Of a stretch of 23,290 bases of DNA, positions 14,070-23,290 are shown in pieces. The notes below the pieces were generated by a model. That model was not told where the DNA came from, did not search any database, and worked only from the letters and a program-made list of their open reading frames with translations. Origin of the DNA: an uncultured delta proteobacterium (GTDB taxonomy: Bacteria > Desulfobacterota > Syntrophia > Syntrophales > UBA2185). Where the stretch lies: positions 1 to 23,290 of the forward strand of contig CAVSPA010000001.1 in assembly GCA_963729715.1 (NCBI GenBank), written 5' to 3'. The position numbers and the translations under genes are program-made. Positions within the stretch are counted from its first letter, which is position 1; each line of letters opens with the position of its first letter.

Positions 14070-15128
14070 ATGCTTACGGACTACCTGCAAACTTCAGGTG
14101 CCTATGCGATTCCCCCGATTCTCGGCTTTCTTGTTCTCATATCTCTCACCTTGATTTCCCTTCTGAGGGGCGGGAAGAATCCCGCAAATAAGCTGTTTGC
14201 CGGTATCTGTCTTACAGGCGCGTTGGTCAATGCCGACATGGTACTGGTTTCAACCATTCCGGATAAGAACCTCACCCTCACTGTAGACAGGGTACTCGAT
14301 TTCTTCTTTGTCCTTGCCTTACCCGTCTATATCCAATTCATTCGTTCCTCGGCATATCGGGCCGGAGATGGTTTGTATATGCTTCCTTTCTCATCAGTTT
14401 CGTTTTCATCTTTTTTACCCCATCAGATCTTTTTATCAGCGGATTTCAGCATTACAATTTTGGAGTGATCGGCTCACGAACTTAACAACCCTCTGGCAAG
14501 TGCGTCAAGTCTCATTCAGGCTAGTGTCGAATCAGTTGGTGAGTGGGATGTCAAAGACGGAAACAGGGATGAGGTTATACAGGATCTCGCATTCTCAATA
14601 AGCGAGTTAAAGAGGGCCGGCGACATTGTGCGGAGCCTTGTGGATCTTTCACGCCAGACCCAGGTCTACGCAGAACCTGTTAACATGAATCTTGCAATCG
14701 ATGACGCGCTCAGGGTTCTGTATAATCTGTATAAACATCTGCAGATTGAAATTGAAAAAAAATAGGACAACGACCTGCCCGTAGTAGAAGGTAATTCTGC
14801 CAATCTGGGTCAGGTGTTTATGAATGTGATCAAGAATGCTGTTGAGGCGATGGGCACAGGGCATGGGAAGATCACCTTGGTGACAGAGTATAAGAAGGAG
14901 ACGGACAGTGTATTGATCGAATGCAGGGATACCGGCAAGGGGATCACGGACGATCAAATGAAAAACATATTCGACCCCTTTTAGACGACCAAGCCGGTTG
15001 GTAAGGGAACGGGACTGGGCCTTTATATTTCTCATGAGATTGTGAGATGGGCAGGCGGGACTATCTCCGTGAAAAGCGAGGAGGGCAAAGGGTCTGTCTT
15101 TTCGATAGAGCTCCCGTGCAAGCGGTGA
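14070..15128 (+). pseudogene. Decayed membrane sensor histidine kinase (TM N-terminus + HisKA + HATPase_c)
   Basis: TM N-terminus frameshifts near 14340 (the other frame continues FLGISGRRWFVY...YNFGVIG) and joins abruptly to AHELNNPL at 14472. QVFMNVIKNA, DTGKGI, IFDPF*TTK and GTGLGL follow, with in-frame TAG at 14763 and 14982 and final TGA at 15126-15128. Confidence 0.88.
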
Positions 15129-15214
15129 GATACACGAAAAATACCGAAAAATACCTTGACAAAGGGGAGGTGTTGGTTTACAAAGCTACACTAATTTGTC
15201 AAGAATCGAGATGA

Positions 15215-15291
<77 letters not shown>

Positions 15292-15300
15292 AGAGATTAC

Positions 15301-15371
15301 AAGGGGTTAGCTGATACGGCTAATCCCTTTTCTGCATTTTGGAGGGGTTTTTCTAACGGATTTCTAACGGA
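15301..15371 (+). other. att-junction-like region: hairpin plus tandem 11-bp direct repeat
   Basis: AAGGGGTTAGC/GCTAATCCCTT hairpin (15301-15329) and TTTCTAACGGA x2 (15350-15371) directly after the tRNA 3' end. Confidence 0.6.
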
Positions 15372-15521
15372 GTAAAGAACCCCGTGCTTCCGCACGGGGC
15401 ATTAAAACTCAAAATCTAACTGCTTGGGAGCTTTTCTTCATGCTTATGATACTCAATTCCTAAAGAGCGGAAACCCTTTCCTCCCCGTGCTTCCGCACGG
15501 GGTATCCAGGGTTTGATTTTC
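15372..15521. mobile_element. 150-bp non-autonomous IS200/IS605-superfamily (ISC/PATE-like) mini-element
   Basis: Two identical subterminal hairpins CCCCGTGCTTCCGCACGGGG (15380-15399, 15483-15502). Ends GTAAAGAACCCC... and ...TTCCTCCCC-hairpin-TATCC..., followed by ATGAA. No target duplication and no ORF. Confidence 0.75.
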
Positions 15522-15744
15522 ATGAAAAGTTTCCTGCAAAAGGTCAACCTGTTGCCGATTTTAAACCTCGTCGTTGAATAGAGGTCCGTAAGTGTCCATT
15601 GTAATCTTTATACTCGAGCCATTATATTTTTACGTTGTTTCAATAGAGAGGAGATTTGAGTTCAGAGTATCGTATGCAGGTAAGAGACAATTTGAACTTG
15701 TGGAAGATCTAATACCCTTTATGTGAAACAATCAGTCTTTTCCC

Positions 15745-15858
15745 GGACAGTCAGTTCCTCTCCGGGACTTTAAGTTATCTGCTTCTCTTGTCATCATTTG
15801 CTTCTTCCTTGTTAAGCGTCCGGCGATTTTGACTGGCATACTTTCTTTCAAACGGAAA
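15745..15858. repeat. Diverged island repeat, copy A
   Basis: Shares GGACAGTCA, CTCTCCGG, CTGCTTCT and CATTTGCTTCTTCCTTGT with copy B; TTTCAAACGGAAA resembles TTTCAATCGGTAA of copy C. Confidence 0.7.
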
Positions 15859-16272
15859 TCCTTATTGACTGTACTCTTGCTTTTCTGATTCAGCCCTCCA
15901 TACAACATTTCACCTTGCAAGTGCAAACTGATTCCCATTTGAGAAGGTTTATGATACCATACGAGTTATTGAACAAAGCAGTGGGAAGAGGATCTACTCT
16001 ACAAACCATGCTCATGGGCATTAGGTGAAACACAGATTAACTCCTCCCATTTTACCCCAGTTTCCCAGCTGGTACTTTATAACATTCATTAAGCCATAAG
16101 AACACAAGGTGGTGTCAATAACCGGCGCATTTCATTTTTTATTGCTCGCTCTTGAGCATAACGGGATGAAAGGTGCTACATAGACTAACTGAGCGTGAAT
16201 CGTATTTTTCGATAAATGCAAGGAGTGAACGGTCAGATAATGGTCTCTAGACCGGAAATAAGGAGATAGCTG

Positions 16273-17352
16273 ATGTCGGAAACTGGAAAAGGGGTAAAAG
16301 AGTTGTTCGAGGAAGTGATAAATCAGGGCCTGTGCACCGGATGCGGTGCCTGCATTACAGGTTGCCCATACTTGGTTGATCATGAGGGGAGAATCGTCTT
16401 GATGGACAAATGCACCGGCGGTAACGGGGATTGTTATAAGCACTGTCCGAGGACATTTCTCGATAGGGATGCAATAAGTAGGATAGTCTTTGGGAGTTCC
16501 TATGACGATGGTGAAATAGGCCAGTTTCTTGAAATCTTTATGGCTCGATCTAAGGATCCGGAAATTAGGAAAAGAGGGCAGGATGGGGGTACCGTTACGG
16601 GCCTTCTGGTCATGGCGATGGAAGAGGGCCTAATTGATGTTGTGGCTTGTGCGCGGATGAATGAGGAAAAAGTGCCGCGGGGTTATCTTGCGCGCAGCCG
16701 TTCGGAACTGCTCCATTGTGCCGGTTCGAGTTATGAAGCTTGCCTTGCCCTGCAAGCCTACCGCAGCCTTCCCAAGGACGACCTCGAAAAAATAGCGATC
16801 GTCGGCAGAGGTTGTCAAATTGAGGCCGTGGGGAAGATGAAGCAAATCCCGCCTAAAAACAGCCCCGATCCCAGGAATATTAAGTTGAGTTTGGGACTGA
16901 TATGCGGCTGGGCTCTTTCCCAGAGCGCCTTTCATCCTTACCTGAAAGGAATCTGTGAACTTTCAAATGTCAGCAAATTCGACATCCCTCACACGCCTCA
17001 CTATTCCTTTGATGTATACTTCAATAATCATCCTGATACCATGTCACTCCCCCTTGATAAAATTAAACCCTTTATCAATCCGGCCTGTTGGTTTTGTTGG
17101 GATATGACTGCTGAATTTTCAGATATTTCCGTTGGTTCAGCAGGCGCCGAATTTCCGGGATGGAATACCGTCATCGTTCGCAGCCATGTTGGGTCCGAAC
17201 TTGTCCTCTTGGCAAACAGGAAAGGAATTTTGGAGACTCGATCTTTACCGAATCACAGATTGGAAAACCTCAAAAAGGCCGCGCTCAAGAGAAAGAATGC
17301 GGCGTATGAAAATATTGTGCAAAAGACGGGGAATGACGAGGGTCTGTTATAA
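16273..17352 (+). CDS. Coenzyme F420 hydrogenase/dehydrogenase beta-subunit (FrhB/FdhB-like) FeS flavoprotein with N-terminal ferredoxin domain
   Basis: CTGCGACITGCP, GQDGG.VT, GSSY, VG.GCQ, GLICGW and CWFCWDMTAEFSDISVG motifs; AAGGAG RBS. Confidence 0.87.
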   Translation: MSETGKGVKELFEEVINQGLCTGCGACITGCPYLVDHEGRIVLMDKCTGGNGDCYKHCPRTFLDRDAISRIVFGSSYDDGEIGQFLEIFMARSKDPEIRKRGQDGGTVTGLLVMAMEEGLIDVVACARMNEEKVPRGYLARSRSELLHCAGSSYEACLALQAYRSLPKDDLEKIAIVGRGCQIEAVGKMKQIPPKNSPDPRNIKLSLGLICGWALSQSAFHPYLKGICELSNVSKFDIPHTPHYSFDVYFNNHPDTMSLPLDKIKPFINPACWFCWDMTAEFSDISVGSAGAEFPGWNTVIVRSHVGSELVLLANRKGILETRSLPNHRLENLKKAALKRKNAAYENIVQKTGNDEGLL

Positions 17353-17435
17353 TTGAGAACCCTGCCTGGCTATATTGCCGAGAGGCATTCAGGTAAAAAT
17401 GAATAATGGAACATCTATATGCAGGGAGGTAGCGA

Positions 17436-19376
17436 ATGGCGAGTATTGGATTGGATAAATCTGGAACTGAGGTGCTTTTAATGGGCAATGAGGCTGTGGC
17501 GAGAGGGGTGATCGAAGCTGGCGTGGGGGTTGCGTCTGCCTATCCCGGAAGTCCGACTTCTGAAGTGATCCCGGCTATCGCGGAAGTCGCCAAAGAAAGA
17601 AATATTTATGTCGAGTGGTCTACAAATGAGAAGGTAGCTCTCGAAGTGGCTGCTGGAGCCTCATTTGCGGGAATCCGCGGCTTTTCGGTTATGAAACAAA
17701 ATGGGGCCAATGTTGCAGCGGATTTTCTGGTAAATCTGAATATGACCGGCATCGGCAGCGCGGGGCTGGTCATTTTTATTTCTGATGATCCCGGCGGGGG
17801 AACCAGTAACAACGAAGAGGATTCCAGGACTGTGGCAAAATGGCTTGATAATCCCTTGATGGAGCCGAGCAGCGCCCAAGAAGCCAAGGAAATGATCAAA
17901 TGGGCATATGAGGTTTCGGAGGCAGTAAATCTTGTGACCTTTGTTCGCGGCGTAGGCCGGATTTCTTATACCCGGAGTAATGTCATGCTGAACGAGCTGC
18001 CCGACAAGAATAAACCAAAGCCTTTTTTCCCCGAGATCTGGGATATGAATAATCCCCGGAAAAGCAGATTCACCTCTGGTCCATTTCCGATTTTTCACAA
18101 ACCCCTCCACGAAAAGTTGGAGAAGGCGCGGACAATTTTTGAGACCTCTTCCTTCAACCGATACCTGGGACCGGAGAAACCTGAACTGTTAATAATCACC
18201 TGTGGCGCTTGCACTTCCTATTGCATTGAAGCCATGGAAGAATTGAAATTGAACGAGGAGATTGGAATCTTAAAGTTGGGGACCACTTGGCCTCTTCCGG
18301 AAAAACTAGTGGCTCGCCATCTGATCTCCGCAAGAAAAATACTCTTCGTCGAAGAGATGGATCCCTTCGTGGAACAAAGCGTGATGGAATTGGCCGCCAG
18401 TCTGCTTCCGGCAACGGCAAAACTCAGCTTCTTCGGCGCCCGCTCGGGGCACATCACCCCTTACAATGAACTGAGCACTGACATCGTCATCGATGCCTTG
18501 TCGGATATCCTGAATGTGGCTAATCGGGGACGGGACATCGCCTATGAGAATCTATCCAGGGAAGCGGCGAAACTAGTGCCACACCGTCCCATCAACATGT
18601 GCCCGGGTTGCCCACATCGGGCGACTTTTTGGGCATTAAAGCAGGCCATTACACTGGACGGCCGCAACGGTTTTCTCTGTGGCGATGTGGGTTGTTACTC
18701 GATGGGATTTTCTGAACCGGGCTTCTTTCAATCACGTACGATGCATGCGATGGGTTCGGGTGCGGGAGTGGCCAGCGGCATGGGCAAACTGAAGCAATTC
18801 GGCTTTGATCAACCCGTGCTTGCGATATGCGGCGATTCCACTTTTTTCCATGCCGCTATGCCGGCTTTGGTCAACGGCGTTTACAATAATTCAGACTTCA
18901 CGCTACTTGTCGTTGACAACAGCGCTACGGCCATGACTGGTTTTCAGCCTCATCCGGGAACGGGACAACTGGCAACCGGCGATCCGGCGACTGTGGTTAG
19001 CATAGAAGCTGTATGCAAGGCGATGGGGGCGTTTGTTGAAGTATGTGATCCCTTTGACTTGCACAAGACGACCGATGCCTTGTTGAAGATGATGAAGAAG
19101 GAGGGTGGCACAAAGGTCATCGTCATGCGCCACATGTGCCAATTAGTGAAAGATAAAAGAAGAATTGCTCGAGAATATAAGATGCACGTGGATCCATCAA
19201 GATGCTTGGCGGACAACTGCGGCTGCAATCGGCTCTGCACGCGACTCTTCGGATGTTCCGGACTGATGGTGGATAATGAAAGCGGCAAGGCGGTTATAGA
19301 CGAGGCGCTTTGTGCCGGATGCGGGCTGTGTTCGAGCATTTGCCCGGCGAATGCAATAATCAAGGAGGCCAACTGA
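17436..19376 (+). CDS. iorA: Indolepyruvate:ferredoxin oxidoreductase-family alpha subunit
   Basis: LMGNEAVARG, YPGSP.SE, WSTNEKVALE, MCPGCPHR, GDVGCY, GDSTFFH, TAMTG.QPHPG and C-terminal CAGCGLC...CP. Confidence 0.93.
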   Translation: MASIGLDKSGTEVLLMGNEAVARGVIEAGVGVASAYPGSPTSEVIPAIAEVAKERNIYVEWSTNEKVALEVAAGASFAGIRGFSVMKQNGANVAADFLVNLNMTGIGSAGLVIFISDDPGGGTSNNEEDSRTVAKWLDNPLMEPSSAQEAKEMIKWAYEVSEAVNLVTFVRGVGRISYTRSNVMLNELPDKNKPKPFFPEIWDMNNPRKSRFTSGPFPIFHKPLHEKLEKARTIFETSSFNRYLGPEKPELLIITCGACTSYCIEAMEELKLNEEIGILKLGTTWPLPEKLVARHLISARKILFVEEMDPFVEQSVMELAASLLPATAKLSFFGARSGHITPYNELSTDIVIDALSDILNVANRGRDIAYENLSREAAKLVPHRPINMCPGCPHRATFWALKQAITLDGRNGFLCGDVGCYSMGFSEPGFFQSRTMHAMGSGAGVASGMGKLKQFGFDQPVLAICGDSTFFHAAMPALVNGVYNNSDFTLLVVDNSATAMTGFQPHPGTGQLATGDPATVVSIEAVCKAMGAFVEVCDPFDLHKTTDALLKMMKKEGGTKVIVMRHMCQLVKDKRRIAREYKMHVDPSRCLADNCGCNRLCTRLFGCSGLMVDNESGKAVIDEALCAGCGLCSSICPANAIIKEAN

Positions 19377-19987
19377 TGAGGAATGGGAAACTGAAAAAGG
19401 ATCCGTATAATGTGATTATCTCTGGGGTTGGCGGGCAGGGTAATGTTTTGCTTTCCGGATTTATCGGTACGGCATTGTTAAACGAGGGTTTTATCGTCAG
19501 CGTAGCGGACACCTTTGGCGTCAGTCAGCGAGGAGGATCTGTATCAAGCCACATCAAAATCTCAGAAAAAACCTTGTACAGTTCGGTTACACTTAAGGGT
19601 AAAGCCGATGTAATTATTGGAATGGAACCTGTCGAGACCTTGAGAACCTTGGTTTATTTCGGCAACCCTGCCGTGATAACGATCGTAAACCCCAGACCGT
19701 TCTACCCTTCCGGCGGCGTGGAATATCCGGATCTGAGCGAGGTGCGACAAACCATTGAGAAGATGTCTTCAAAAACTCAATATGTGCAAGCGACTGAGGA
19801 AGCCTTAAGAATGGGGAATCCGATATATACGAATATTATCTTGTTGGGTGCTGTCGTGGGATCGGGCGTCTTACCCCTCAGCAGAGAGTCAATGATTCCT
19901 CTTCTTGAAGAACGCTTCCCAGATAAAGTATTAGATCTTAATGTCAATGCATTCAACAAAGGGATGGCGCTCATCGCCGAGACCTGA
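19376..19987 (+). CDS. iorB: Indolepyruvate:ferredoxin oxidoreductase-family beta subunit
   Basis: TGATG overlap with iorA; GVGGQG, GVSQRGGSV.SH, N...LGA and N..AF..G motifs. Confidence 0.92.
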   Translation: MRNGKLKKDPYNVIISGVGGQGNVLLSGFIGTALLNEGFIVSVADTFGVSQRGGSVSSHIKISEKTLYSSVTLKGKADVIIGMEPVETLRTLVYFGNPAVITIVNPRPFYPSGGVEYPDLSEVRQTIEKMSSKTQYVQATEEALRMGNPIYTNIILLGAVVGSGVLPLSRESMIPLLEERFPDKVLDLNVNAFNKGMALIAET

Positions 19988-20294: not shown

Positions 20295-20324
20295 ACCTGC
20301 CCCTCTAAAACTGGTCCAGTTTTT
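20293..20324. mobile_element. Solitary IS3-family-like terminal inverted repeat
   Basis: TGACCTGCCCCTCTAAAACTGGTCCAGTTTTT begins where the SDR homology stops; no partner end or transposase seen. Confidence 0.5.
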
Positions 20325-20349
20325 AATATGTAAAAATCGACCTCTTCCT

Positions 20350-20462
20350 GGACAGTCATCATCTCTCCGGTAAGGGAATTTATGCTGCTTCTTTTGTCAG
20401 CATTTGCTTCTTCCTTGTAATGTTGTTTTTCTTATTCTATTTGCTTGCACAACATTTCAATC
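20350..20462. repeat. Diverged island repeat, copy B
   Basis: About 70 bp closely similar to copy A; CTTCCTTGT...CATTTCAATC shared with copy C. Confidence 0.7.
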
Positions 20463-20541
20463 TATAATAATCAAAAAACCCTGAGAACTCTCATTTAAAA
20501 TATGGTACACGATGTTAGGACTAAAGCATCATTAGGAGGTT

Positions 20542-21240
20542 ATGCATATGAATATGAAAGTAATTAGAAGGAATCTTTTACGAGTAACAGCCATCGGTTT
20601 TATCTTGGTTTTTTTAATTGCCATTGTGCCTTCGACCCAGAATACGGCTTTCGGAGAAGAACAAAAACCAATCCAACTTTCAAAGCCCCAAATCGCCGGC
20701 AATCCTTTGATGCAGCTTTTGGCAAAGAGAAGTTCCTCACGCGAATTCAGTTCAGAACCATTACCGGTGAAAATTCTTTCAAATATGCTCTGGGCAGCAT
20801 CCGGAATCAATCGTCCGGAGTCTGGCAAACGGACTGCACCTACTGCGATCAATCGGCAAGAGATCGACATATATGTTGCAACTGCTGCTGGCCTTTACCT
20901 CTATGATGCAAAATCGAACTTTTTGAAACCGATACTGGCAGGAGATATTAGAGGAGTGACCGGTACTCAGGGATATGTAAAGGACGCTGCTGTGAACCTT
21001 ATTTATGTGGCGGATTATTCCAAGATGAGTTCATCGTCAGATGAGGCTAAAATCATGTATGCAGCGGCTGACACGGGATTCATAAGCGAAAATGTTTATC
21101 TTTATTGTGCCTCCGAAGGATTATCAACGGTCGTACGCGCGGCGATAGATAGGCCTGCCCTCGCAAAAGCCATGGGCTTACGACCGGATCAGAGGATCAT
21201 TCTGGCGCAATCGGTCGGATACCCCAAGAAACAGAAATGA
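20542..21240 (+). CDS. Nitroreductase-family (SagB/ThcOx-like) flavoprotein with signal peptide
   Basis: RSSSREF, LWAA.GINR...KRTAPTA.N, D.GFISENVYL.CASEGL and GYP motifs; AGGAGG RBS; hydrophobic leader. Confidence 0.9.
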   Translation: MHMNMKVIRRNLLRVTAIGFILVFLIAIVPSTQNTAFGEEQKPIQLSKPQIAGNPLMQLLAKRSSSREFSSEPLPVKILSNMLWAASGINRPESGKRTAPTAINRQEIDIYVATAAGLYLYDAKSNFLKPILAGDIRGVTGTQGYVKDAAVNLIYVADYSKMSSSSDEAKIMYAAADTGFISENVYLYCASEGLSTVVRAAIDRPALAKAMGLRPDQRIILAQSVGYPKKQK

Positions 21241-21401
21241 TGGGGGTAAGATGGACAGACGTGTCAATATGTAAATCGGGGTCTATCGGTAAGCGCATAA
21301 AACATAGTCAGTTTACTAGGGAGAAGGGAATGAAAAGACTCCCTTTCTCACCGTAATTCACAACGTTTTATAGAATGGTATATGCAATAGTTGTCAGTGG
21401 A

Positions 21402-21517
21402 GACAGCAGTTCTATCCGGTTGGACGATCTTGAAAATCGTATATTGGATTTTTTGTTTAGTAGCTTCCTTGTTGTTTTTTTGAATTTCCATTCTTGATGC
21501 AGCATTTCAATCGGTAA
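21402..21517. repeat. Diverged island repeat, copy C (also the 5' exon/target of the intron)
   Basis: GACGATCTTGAAAA and ATTGGATTTTTTGTTTAGT are identical to copy D; GACAG-CAGTTC..TCCGG resembles copy A. Confidence 0.7.
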
Positions 21518-22140
21518 GTGTGCCACGAGGCTGCACAAGAGATGAGGGGAGGTCCCTCGAAGTCGGCTTGCAGGAGCGGGCTTCAAACCACCTTAAGCTG
21601 CGATGGTAAAGAGCCATGGTGGTGAGCGGTAAGGAAAAGGCAGGGCATGACCCTGTCAGGTGAGGTTCAGGGAGGCGAGCGCAAGCGAACTACTTCTGAG
21701 GTGTCGAAATGAAATGGATGATGTCAGAACTGGGGGGCTTACTGATCTCCAGGATAAGTCCAGGAGGGACCTGTTTACTGCCTGGGCGGCATCCGGCATA
21801 AAGGTAGCGCGAACCTGATTCAGGCTCTTGTGTGGAACGTGGGAACCTGTCGTCCCGATGATAAGGGAGAAATTCAAGTGGAGGAAACCACAAGAATGAG
21901 AGTACCGATGCGGGGCACGGGGGCGGACCAACTCGTATTAGTGTGGAAGTTCCTGTAATGGGAATGGAGCGAAGGGGTTGGATCATCTGATCTTATTGTT
22001 TGGTCAACCAGAGATGGGAGGAGCCAGGGAATAAGATAAGACCGCTGGGTTAGCCTGGCGGCTGGATGATAAGAGCCGGATGACGGGAGACTGTCACGTC
22101 CGGATCCGTGGGACCGTGGGGGTGCGCCGCGCCACCCAAC
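21518..22140 (+). ncRNA. ORF-less group II intron (IIB, resembling bacterial class D / RmInt1-like)
   Basis: 5' GTGTG; domain V GAGCCGGATGACGGGAGACTGTCACGTCCGGATC (22073-22106) with AGC triad; 3' end ...CCACCCAAC. EBS1 TTACTGA (21739-21745) pairs with exon TCGGTAA and EBS2 TGAAATG (21710-21716) pairs with exon CATTTCA. No RT ORF. Confidence 0.92.
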
Positions 22141-22417
22141 TCTTTTAACACGCATGTTATGGATTCCATTGACATAGTACAAATGGAATTTTCCTATATT
22201 TCATCCGTCAGGAAGTAATGTCTTATAAAAAAAATTATTATAAAGGTTAAATTCAATTGGCATAAAAATGGCTGTGAATTGGGAGGAAATAGCGCCCATT
22301 ACTCTTCCATTTAATAGTTACCGCTTTTCCACATGTAACACGCCTATCTTATAAGTAAGAAACCTATTGTTTATGCGCTGTCCTTGAGCACGATACTTGA
22401 AAATATGGAGGTGTACG

Positions 22418-22795
22418 ATGAAGCGACGAGTGAGTCCCTCGATTCCTTCATGGAAGGCAGTTTTAATCTTATCGATTCTTTGCTGTCTTTGTCCTCAGAT
22501 GTCTTTGGCAACATCGCCACAGGACATGAAACTTGAATATGATGCAAGCACGCAAATGCTGACAGTCACGATCACACACCCGTCTTCTTTTCCCAATTAT
22601 CACTACATAAAATATGTTGAAATCAAGAAGAACGGAGTCGATGTGATGAAGAACACTTATAAAAATCAACCTGACCAAGCAACATTTACATACACATATA
22701 AGGTGCCCGCTGCTGAGTATGAAGAGCTGGAGGTGACAGCCACGTGTAGCTGGTACGGATACAAGACGGTAAATCTGACTGTCCGCAAGAAGTAG
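22418..22795 (+). CDS. Small secreted protein with superoxide-reductase/desulfoferrodoxin-like motifs
   Basis: GGAGG RBS, signal peptide, ITHP.....HYIKYVEI and ATCSWYG (compare SOR HP....HYI.WI and YCNLHG). Confidence 0.7.
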   Translation: MKRRVSPSIPSWKAVLILSILCCLCPQMSLATSPQDMKLEYDASTQMLTVTITHPSSFPNYHYIKYVEIKKNGVDVMKNTYKNQPDQATFTYTYKVPAAEYEELEVTATCSWYGYKTVNLTVRKK

Positions 22796-22917
22796 TCTGG
22801 ACATTCAGGTCTGCCTGCAGAAGCGAGACCAAAGTCCTACGAAGGGTCAGGGATTAAGCTGAAAGCTAACAGCATACAGCCAATGGGGAAATAAGCACTT
22901 GAACCCTAAGTGAAGCC

Positions 22918-23027
22918 TGCAATTCCGCCGGATTGACGATCTTGAAAAAGCAACAATTGGATTTTTTGTTTAGTCCTTCCTCTGAAATGTAGAATCCGAT
23001 AATTTTGCTGAGTATCCACCATTTCAA
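22918..23027. repeat. Diverged island repeat, copy D
   Basis: CCGG, GACGATCTTGAAAA (22935-22948), ATTGGATTTTTTGTTTAGT (22956-22974), CTTCCT and CATTTCAA (23020-23027) are colinear with copy C. Confidence 0.7.
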
Positions 23028-23290
23028 GTGATAGACAGTATCTAATGGCTGATATTTACTTGACCTACACGTACGTTGCTGCTTATGCTCCCTCCTTCAA
23101 ATGCAACGCCTTATCAAAAAACAGCTTTGGGACGGTACCCGTTCTTAGAAACGCCAGTTAAAAATAATCATTCCTGGTGCCAACCCGTTAGGAAAGTCGG
23201 TGAACCATTGATTTTCGGGAATAATATTTATAACTCCGATTTGAACCCCGCCTGATGCCTTAGCGGCATAATTGACTGCGCCTAACTTAC

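Follow-up and report, generated by a model that had tools for sequence, protein, structure and literature searches.

A class D group II intron without an ORF points to a putative cassette-junction system in an uncultured Syntrophales bacterium

The window analyzed here, a stretch of 23,290 nt that is one whole contig of a 19-contig, 3.76-Mb assembly of an uncultured member of the Syntrophales, contains copies A to D of a repeat, and copy C is interrupted by a group II intron. This raises the question whether the intron belongs to a lineage that is specialized on the repeat, as an earlier note on this DNA had proposed by analogy to group IIC-attC introns and to RmInt1 in ISRm2011-2. The answer that we prefer, with a probability of roughly 0.6, is that an RmInt2-like intron homes into an accessory site of a cassette system that resembles integrons or dif modules.

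The intron starts with GTGTG at 21518 and ends with AC at 22140, boundaries that were taken from the sequence. Rfam families match at 21544-21661 (RF01999, 116 bits) and at 22071-22140 (RF00029, 45.8 bits). The GUGYG start, the AY end, domain V and the pairing of both EBS1 and EBS2 are those of group IIB, while relatives have a domain VI that is about 8 nt longer. The main elements are as follows.

21518..22140, + strand: group IIB intron without ORF, 623 nt, of the class D (RmInt1-like) lineage
21710..21714, + strand: EBS2, working 5 nt, pairs with 21505-21509 (exon -13 to -9)
21739..21745, + strand: EBS1, with the delta base C at 21738
22141..22142, + strand: start of the 3' exon, IBS3 = T, extends the right arm of the core

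Judged from its sequence, this is a real group II intron, predicted to be self-splicing and mobile, and an element of an ordinary kind. It had been expected that copy C should also occur without an intron and copies of the other types with one, and both situations were found. Contigs of public runs skip the intron (aligned at 85% likeness, with sides of 32-40 letters): in the RNA run X15 the exons are joined directly from 21517 to 22141, and in the DNA run X2 and in X15 there is also a passage from 21517 to 22143 with 2 other letters in between. Because the intron-skipping form is present in the DNA run too, it represents an empty allele and not splicing. An intron-free paralog of copy C (G000 C3:71029-70896) is 86% identical over 139 nt, and an intron-free allele in locus L363 (81% over 97 nt, with an identical IBS1) is situated directly behind a gene for a 279-aa recombinase. 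Homologs of the intron occupy A-type and B-type copies elsewhere. A search of viral contigs with the intron 5' pattern yielded 0 matches.

The intron is about 89% identical over 507 nt (domains I-III) to three ORF-bearing copies elsewhere in the genome. Two of these encode an intact RT-maturase of 430 aa, and in the third the RT is split in two frames. The protein scores over the cut-off of TIGR04416 and contains the Pfam domains RVT_1 and GIIM only; class D is characterized by RT-maturases of about 420-430 aa that, like this one, lack an endonuclease domain. It also carries the class D C-terminal motif, given as LX3AX3PXLF[V/A]HW in the accessible text of PMC4615759, with one change, F for A, and its best plasmid matches are ltrA proteins of Rhizobium/Sinorhizobium (65-67% identity). 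By RT domains, motif and best matches, the intron is assigned to a class D clade without endonuclease, of which it is a non-autonomous member lacking an ORF. It would probably be served in trans by the RT of a relative that has an ORF, in analogy to the cases described in the accessible parts of PMC4424553 and PMC2882425.

Among the matches listed, the complete copies that were found by domain I comprise 20 ORF-less, 16 full-length and 2 odd ones, and 14 further long loci are without a domain V match. ORF-less copies are thus about as common here as full ones, in contrast to the rarity of bacterial group II introns without an ORF that is stated in the part of the review consulted (PMC4424553). 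A comparable case, as far as the accessible text describes it, is TeI3 of Thermosynechococcus (PMC2882425), which shares ORF-less copies, good EBS/IBS pairing, EBS retargeting and a helper RT in the same genome. However, TeI3 is of class CL, has an endonuclease, and was described for one genome, whereas the ORF-less copies of the present clade are spread across many genomes.

EBS1 pairs with 21511-21517, where the exon's last 7 bases lie, and one of these pairs is G-U; the eighth pair that the earlier note had counted is the linker base at -8. Similarly, its 7-nt EBS2 is literally present, as 21710-21716 matches 21503-21509, but folding places the last base of the match at the edge of a stem, and pairing is kept across homologs for the first 4-5 nt only, so that the working EBS2 is confined to about 21710-21714. 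The motif CATTTCA was confirmed in copies B and D, as was the variant reported for copy A. Yet these three copies have 2 EBS1 mismatches each and have kept IBS2 alone, and therefore they are not free targets of the window's intron.

The predicted covariation of EBS and IBS was borne out. The metagenome sample contained, among the matches listed, at least 291 loci with 192 intron 5' ends and, after removal of duplicates and of flanks shorter than 20 nt, 162 distinct flanks. Of the 71 homologs with a readable EBS1 loop, again among the matches listed, 49 have at least 5 EBS1 pairs to their own exon, compared to a mean of 9.7 and a maximum of 20 in 1000 shuffles. EBS1 pairing with the exon is therefore beyond chance, and EBS2 also varies with the target. 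This pairing and the empty allele suggest that the intron retrohomed into its site by EBS1 and EBS2, with the relative's RT as the putative helper.

The target itself turned out to be part of a larger arrangement. A profile built from copies A to D retrieved 36 copies at E<1e-3 and 40 at 1e-2 from the genome and 0 from the reversed genome. Open reading frames cover 85% of the genome, but 39 of the 40 copies lie outside of them, and 23 of the 40 are located between co-oriented genes, versus 572 of 2000 intergenic points chosen at random. One end, searched with a strict pattern, was present in 199 of the 339 genomes of the order, with up to 55 sites per genome (a count of the table gives 51 control hits, spread over 43 genomes), and a strict pattern for the other end had a patchy distribution in 29 of 251 genomes of the phylum, with 1 control hit. 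With about 40 copies in the genome, the repeat is indeed the abundant and conserved target that had been postulated, but the designation as an island repeat does not hold, because it is genome-wide and order-wide. The repeats have no Rfam match at E up to 1, which argues against an RNA family. A coding remnant was rejected by eye, based on the location outside of called ORFs and on conservation that is confined to spaced patches.

The intron flanks reveal how the repeat is built. Among the matches listed, the commonest target (82 flanks) is a quasi-palindromic core of 13 nt, TTWC-N5-GWAA, followed by T, and this T is found directly 3' of 27 of 28 core-type insertions. A second target group (22 flanks, among the matches listed) has a GTAGGTG site, here called site2. 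An empty core is present 44-48 nt upstream of 18 of the 22 site2-type insertions (0.84 expected), and for 8 of 26 core-type insertions (0.99 expected) site2 follows 44-48 nt downstream. For 21 of 75 core insertions (2.9 expected) a third site with the sequence CTTCCTG (site0) lies upstream at a distance of 45-49 nt, in 20 cases at exactly 47 nt. A scan of the genome yielded 68 CTTCCTG-core and 28 core-GTAGGTG units, versus 15 and 4 in the reversed sequence. A junction begins with a core and, after 46 nt, the GTAGGTG site; the inner piece, either about 20-70 nt or a gene, separates the latter from the CTTCCTG site, which is followed after 47 nt by another core and then by cargo. In sequence logos all three sites show a 7-mer that is framed by arms resembling TTT and TAA; the middle of the core is variable, and the CTTCCTG and GTAGGTG 7-mers were fixed by the search pattern. 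Recombinases of the lambda family use a 7-bp overlap. An interpretation of site0 as inverted site2 was discarded (1/79, below chance), and a direct hybrid of site2 and site0 was found in no clear case.

The window contains the following junctions and genes.

15215..15291, + strand: tRNA-Met(CAT), left edge of the array
15802..15858, + strand: copy A; site0 ends at 15814, followed by the spacer and the core at 15846-15858; scores 11.3 and 15.1
ends at 15920, + strand: second site0-spacer-core unit after copy A; scores 9.3 and 7.1
16273..19987, + strand: FrhB-like and 2-oxoacid oxidoreductase alpha-/beta-like genes between A and B (Pfam)
20408..20467, + strand: copy B; site0 ends at 20420, 47 nt, core at 20455-20467
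20542..21240, + strand: nitroreductase-family gene, cargo between B and C (PF00881, E 1.7e-23)
21344..21356, + strand: upstream unoccupied core, end of the nitroreductase unit; score 15.3
21390..21402, + strand: putative degenerate site2 (GTAGGTG-type), 46 nt after the upstream core; weak score of 1.6
21403..21461, + strand: inner piece between site2 and site0
21462..21474, + strand: site0 (CTTCCTG-type) of copy C; score 9.2
21505..21517, + strand: occupied core of the TTWC-N5-GWAA type, with IBS2 at 21505-21509, linker at 21510 and IBS1 at 21511-21517; score 21.0; putative accessory site at the start of the cassette
22397..22795, + strand: small hypothetical gene, cargo between C and D, no Pfam match
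22975..23034, + strand: copy D; site0 ends at 22987, 47 nt, degenerate core

At copy C the whole chain of core, site2, inner piece, site0 and core is present at 21344-21517, with a weak middle site and a core-to-core distance of 161 nt. The distance between its site0 and core is 43 nt due to a 4-nt loss, as revealed by the alignment with the L363 allele. Members of the family of its inner piece also precede copy D and occur in other places, next to spacers that differ, and copy B matches the region behind the recombinase gene in L327 with 81% identity over 101 nt. Site-rich genomes contain arrays of junction units around unrelated genes, in the same order as in this genome. The cargo of the arrays is metabolic, regulatory, or of the toxin-antitoxin type (for the 125 ORFs in arrays of other genomes, the starts were read by eye). 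HU/IHF-like and PilZ-like genes, as we take them to be from their N-terminal sequences, recur in several arrays (L389, L391, L393, L399; G054).

Several additional features of these regions were observed. Just before the tRNA gene, at 14070-15130, the window carries a sensor-kinase-like gene that is, by eye, broken by several frameshifts or stops. The 156-nt element at 15371-15526, a repeated palindrome, is 98-99% identical at 7 other places of the genome, with additional partial copies, and is probably a MITE. Another MITE-like repeat, of 200 nt, is present at G000 C4:448662 and in no fewer than 12 further locations (92-98% identity). At five places (G000 C4:447147, C4:12151, C8:4339, C10:109529, C6:435948) an inverted core 115-120 nt before the core replaces the GTAGGTG end, and a similar inverted core ends at 16159 of the window, on the minus strand.

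Is the intron, then, specialized on the repeat? Among the matches listed, 24 of 81 core-type 5' flanks resemble the A-D repeat beyond the IBS. Of the core insertions with both flanks, 17/27 show the repeat (junction) context; among motif matches of this genome that carry no intron the share is 46/210 (p=2.5e-5), and 43/107 (p=0.05) among the intergenic ones of these. The remaining 10 of the 27 fail both context thresholds, and the window's own insertion is among these because of the 4-nt loss in its spacing of site0 and core. Among the matches listed, 79 core-type 5' flanks include 22 of the CTTCCTG type, 6 after a terminator, 2 after an attC-like hairpin, and 49 with no recognizable feature upstream of the core; most of the 49 lack the 3' flank, where the other end of the junction would show. 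The modest p value for intergenic matches and the 49 featureless flanks would be expected if the intron were unspecialized and recognized a relaxed motif of 13-20 nt, of which the repeat ends are the commonest intergenic source. The targeting of RT genes or of other introns by further variants of the clade points in the same direction, as do the many label changes on the intron tree. We nevertheless regard this explanation as somewhat unlikely, because the second EBS variant targets a different site of the very same junction (the 18 of 22 cases mentioned above), the flank of one insertion (L210) terminates with a sequence of the site0 type, and of the 7 perfect targets in the genome 5 are intergenic and junction-core-like, 2 of these occupied.

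In the tree of domain I (80 rows, EBS masked) the core label changes 15 times versus 26.3 times after shuffling, and the GTAGGTG label 7 versus 10.6 times, with bootstrap values that had not converged. The target labels cluster on this tree, yet they switch often. Therefore, the specialization proposed by the earlier note stands with regard to the abundant, conserved target and the covariation, but a core of 13 nt is read and not the whole repeat, and a single, fixed specialist lineage is contradicted by the many switches of target type. Junctions are the main target of the intron clade, they are read via 13-20 nt, and retargeting is frequent. The intron variants would retarget among the sites by EBS changes, as the sites are abundant, conserved, and intergenic.

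The proposed analogies fared differently. Pairing by EBS sequences as in RmInt1 and RmInt2 was verified, but recognition of a hairpin as in group IIC-attC introns was not found. An identity with the latter was rejected, because EBS2 covaries and because only 2/79 flanks pass the attC hairpin test, with the hairpins about 20 nt upstream. According to the accessible text of PMC4615759, Sinorhizobium meliloti carries RmInt2 within inverted repeats that belong to ISRm17, and RmInt1 within ISRm2011-2. As described there, they share with the present intron the assignment to class D, the absence of an endonuclease, homing into repeated ends of a mobile element that is guided by EBS1, EBS2 and, presumably, EBS3, a relaxed EBS2 and, for RmInt2, the T at +1. 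In contrast to the targets described there, the target here is a recombination-type junction and not the inverted repeat or gene of a transposase, and sister variants use different sub-sites of one junction. Group IIC-attC introns (PMC4424553) and IIB introns in integrons (PMC7923331) likewise parasitize recombination sites of gene cassettes, as far as these sources were accessible, but IIC introns read a DNA hairpin (PMC4424553), while the window's intron reads the sequence by EBS1 and EBS2.

The copies also reveal where flanking sequences have changed partners. Pairs that share the right flank (n=5) have the spacer in common as well (0.72-0.96 identity), but have an identity of 0.12-0.32 left of -70, whereas for pairs that share the inner piece (n=7, one of them a near-duplicate) identity falls to 0.34-0.54 in the spacer; the pairs of both groups thus diverge at the CTTCCTG site. 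Of the right alignment ends at 68 sites, 20 are at site0 (two bins, -5 to +4), compared to at most 4 in any other bin; about one quarter of the ends at site0 are ends of IS110 or MITE elements. A duplicate of 440 nt spans from site0 to site0, and 8 contigs of run X2 leave the reference at 22981, in site0 of copy D. Breakpoints at the GTAGGTG site are weaker (28 sites, few ends on each side); two recombinase copies clearly diverge just before it. These results suggest that the invariant 7-mers CTTCCTG and GTAGGTG behave as strand-exchange points of a site-specific recombination. Because shared sequence breaks at the 7-mer sites, the core is not the exchange point, and an IS-like element from core to core, with the core as the crossover, was rejected. 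From the breakpoints we infer that the core, with its variable spacer, is an accessory site, which might be bound by a protein at a fixed distance. The three site types of the cassette junctions are related, and the core is the one that the window's intron targets. Neither cassette circles nor excised forms were observed.

Three types of IS110 elements use the CTTCCTG site and are inserted at its CT; the convergence of IS110 and of introns, including a second, IIC-like family near one core insertion, fits sites that are old, abundant, and harmless to hit. These elements, and introns with an EBS that fits a site type other than that of their own flank (L023, L207, L208), could also mean that parasites made the swaps, by homologous recombination between IS110 or intron copies and subsequent precise loss, and that the repeat, a conserved element upstream of genes, has a regulatory function or binds a protein. 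The intergenic position of 39/40 copies, which mostly point at the downstream gene, would be in line with the latter. However, the breakpoints avoid the core, although it is the commonest intron site, and the right flank is accompanied by the three bases that precede the intron-type junction of site0. Moreover, the cargo is functionally unrelated, and neither sigma-70 promoters nor terminators are in excess at 20300-23290 (4 sigma-70 matches versus 5.3 in shuffled sequences). We therefore regard this explanation as quite improbable.

Which enzyme might act at the 7-mers? In this genome, 3 intact copies of a gene for a 279-aa tyrosine recombinase are located between GTAGGTG and CTTCCTG sites. 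The protein consists of PF02899 and PF00589 only (core-binding and catalytic), and the RKHRH pentad and the tyrosine can be read from its sequence; these are the properties of simple tyrosine recombinases as defined in the accessible text of PMC8138268, which names the subgroups Xer, Rit, TnpA, Integron, TnpR, Brujita, and IntKX. All NCBIfam profiles stay under their cut-offs, the best being archaeal XerA with 120 of 220 bits. Relatives are numerous (at least 1773 at E<=1e-30), and 51 of the 339 genomes of the order contain the gene. Of the recombinase loci with at least 60% identity and both flanks, 25/38 are bordered by a site on one side or both, 13 of them on both, compared to 0/6 loci below 60% and 0/21 loci of other recombinases, a rough control. 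The best core is found 154-165 nt after the recombinase stop codon in 19/32 loci (1.0 expected). A strict site is present in 44/51 genomes with the gene versus 155/288 without it (counted by hand, with related genomes not being independent). A simple tyrosine recombinase such as this family is the likeliest enzyme, for which we see about an even chance.

However, in metagenome assemblies a close homolog was absent from 5/5 of the site-richest genomes of the order, and elsewhere in the phylum it was present in 1/5 site-rich and 0/5 site-free genomes. Altogether, the recombinase was absent from 9/10 high-copy genomes tested, and the inner slot is also filled by other small recombinases and by ordinary genes. 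The arrays may outlive the enzyme, as clusters of attC sites do. Alternatively, the same architecture could be run by host XerC/XerD or by another recombinase or transposase, with the 279-aa gene as a passenger; the units could then also be transposon-like elements that extend from the CTTCCTG site to the GTAGGTG site. Apart from the site-rich genomes without the gene, this would be compatible with single units between housekeeping genes and with genome G570 (70 contigs, 18 strict sites), which has 4 tyrosine-recombinase matches, the two best with XerC/XerD-like scores. We consider it unlikely, because the center of 7 nt and the TTT/TAA flanks differ from the 11+6+11 organization of dif (accessible text of PMC6449649), the genome has a separate dif-like site with a 6-nt center (a pick among 15 loose matches), the sites are patchy in the phylum (29/251) although Xer is universal, and the link to the sites holds down to a recombinase identity of 62%. 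A second recombinase of 200 aa was rejected as the common enzyme, as it occurs in 20/339 genomes and is absent from this one.

The recombinase ORF is bracketed by an inverted repeat of about 13 nt, before the start and after the stop (L305:1140-2050, L318-L367). The inverted repeat has at least 9 nt in 28/44 close and 4/8 distant homologs, with compensatory changes in the 54% group, and could be an end-to-end duplex of the mRNA or a binding site.

A tentative general picture, which we rate at slightly less than even odds, is that Syntrophales and scattered other Desulfobacterota have an undescribed, integron-like shuffling of cassettes. It would involve two non-interchangeable crossover sites (CTTCCTG and GTAGGTG), each with its accessory site at a fixed 46-47 nt, and a simple tyrosine recombinase whose loss can leave tens of sites per genome in place, and it would be old and abundant enough for class D introns to have split among sub-sites and for three IS110 types to have converged. 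The set of junction sites is widespread and apparently undescribed, and sediment bacteria appear to swap cassettes there. A literature search, limited largely to openly accessible main texts, returned no account of them; the Geobacter multicopy-sequence supplements of PMC2996986 could hold a related repeat.

Known cassette systems differ from this one in several respects. An integron was rejected, because TIGR02249 (IntI) did not exceed its cut-off in the genome (63 of 265 bits for the 279-aa protein), and attC sites were rejected because the site logos are without the palindromic RYYYAAC/GTTRRRY ends. The dif modules of Acinetobacter, as presented in the accessible text of PMC6449649, are similar in that accessory genes are situated between short recombinase-type sites with two classes of central sequences. 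A further similarity is that such sites reportedly attract insertion sequences. In contrast to these modules, the present sites have a 7-nt center, TTT/TAA arms and extra sites at 46-47 nt, and they are chromosomal and dispersed; a dif/pdif identity was thus rejected, as the 28-bp site is lacking. The rAID-1 arrays of Bacteroidales, likened here by description (accessible text of bioRxiv 10.1101/471110), share gene arrays, repeated intergenic motifs and an adjacent XerD-like simple tyrosine recombinase. They are defined there by more than 44% identity to the Bacteroidales recombinase and by immunity genes as cargo, and differ in phylum, in cargo, and in the organization as one array behind the recombinase instead of many dispersed ones.

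The value of the intron is that of a pointer, since its targets map a junction system by which a large part of the accessory genome is organized in syntrophic sediment bacteria. If the 7-mers are true crossover points, they would represent a further route of cassette assembly beside integrons and dif modules. The exact sites and the candidate enzyme can be tested on plasmids in E. coli, and a small recombinase with two orthogonal sites would suit cassette exchange. Furthermore, nature provides a series of EBS variants for related sites, which is a test bed for the retargeting of class D introns.

The survey of intron flanks also included some unusual loci. A second, IIC-like intron family (short domain V, sites after terminators) was found 17 nt upstream of one core insertion, the class D copy with the split RT at G000 C4:226650-228564 (L008, L375), a tandem use of one junction by two intron families. 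In L044 (G006:C243) an unrelated gene-like stretch separates the first 95 nt of the intron from domains V-VI, which looks as if the intron ends had carried a passenger. In L225 and L241, and by eye in L165, L190, L203, and L265, the core is located about 20 nt after attC-like hairpins, which suggests that integron cassettes feed into these units. L201, L211, L252, L253, and L258 have another EBS variant and a target end TGGAGATA or similar. By eye, a GATATCAC-like motif recurs about 45 nt upstream in their flanks, possibly a parallel junction system.
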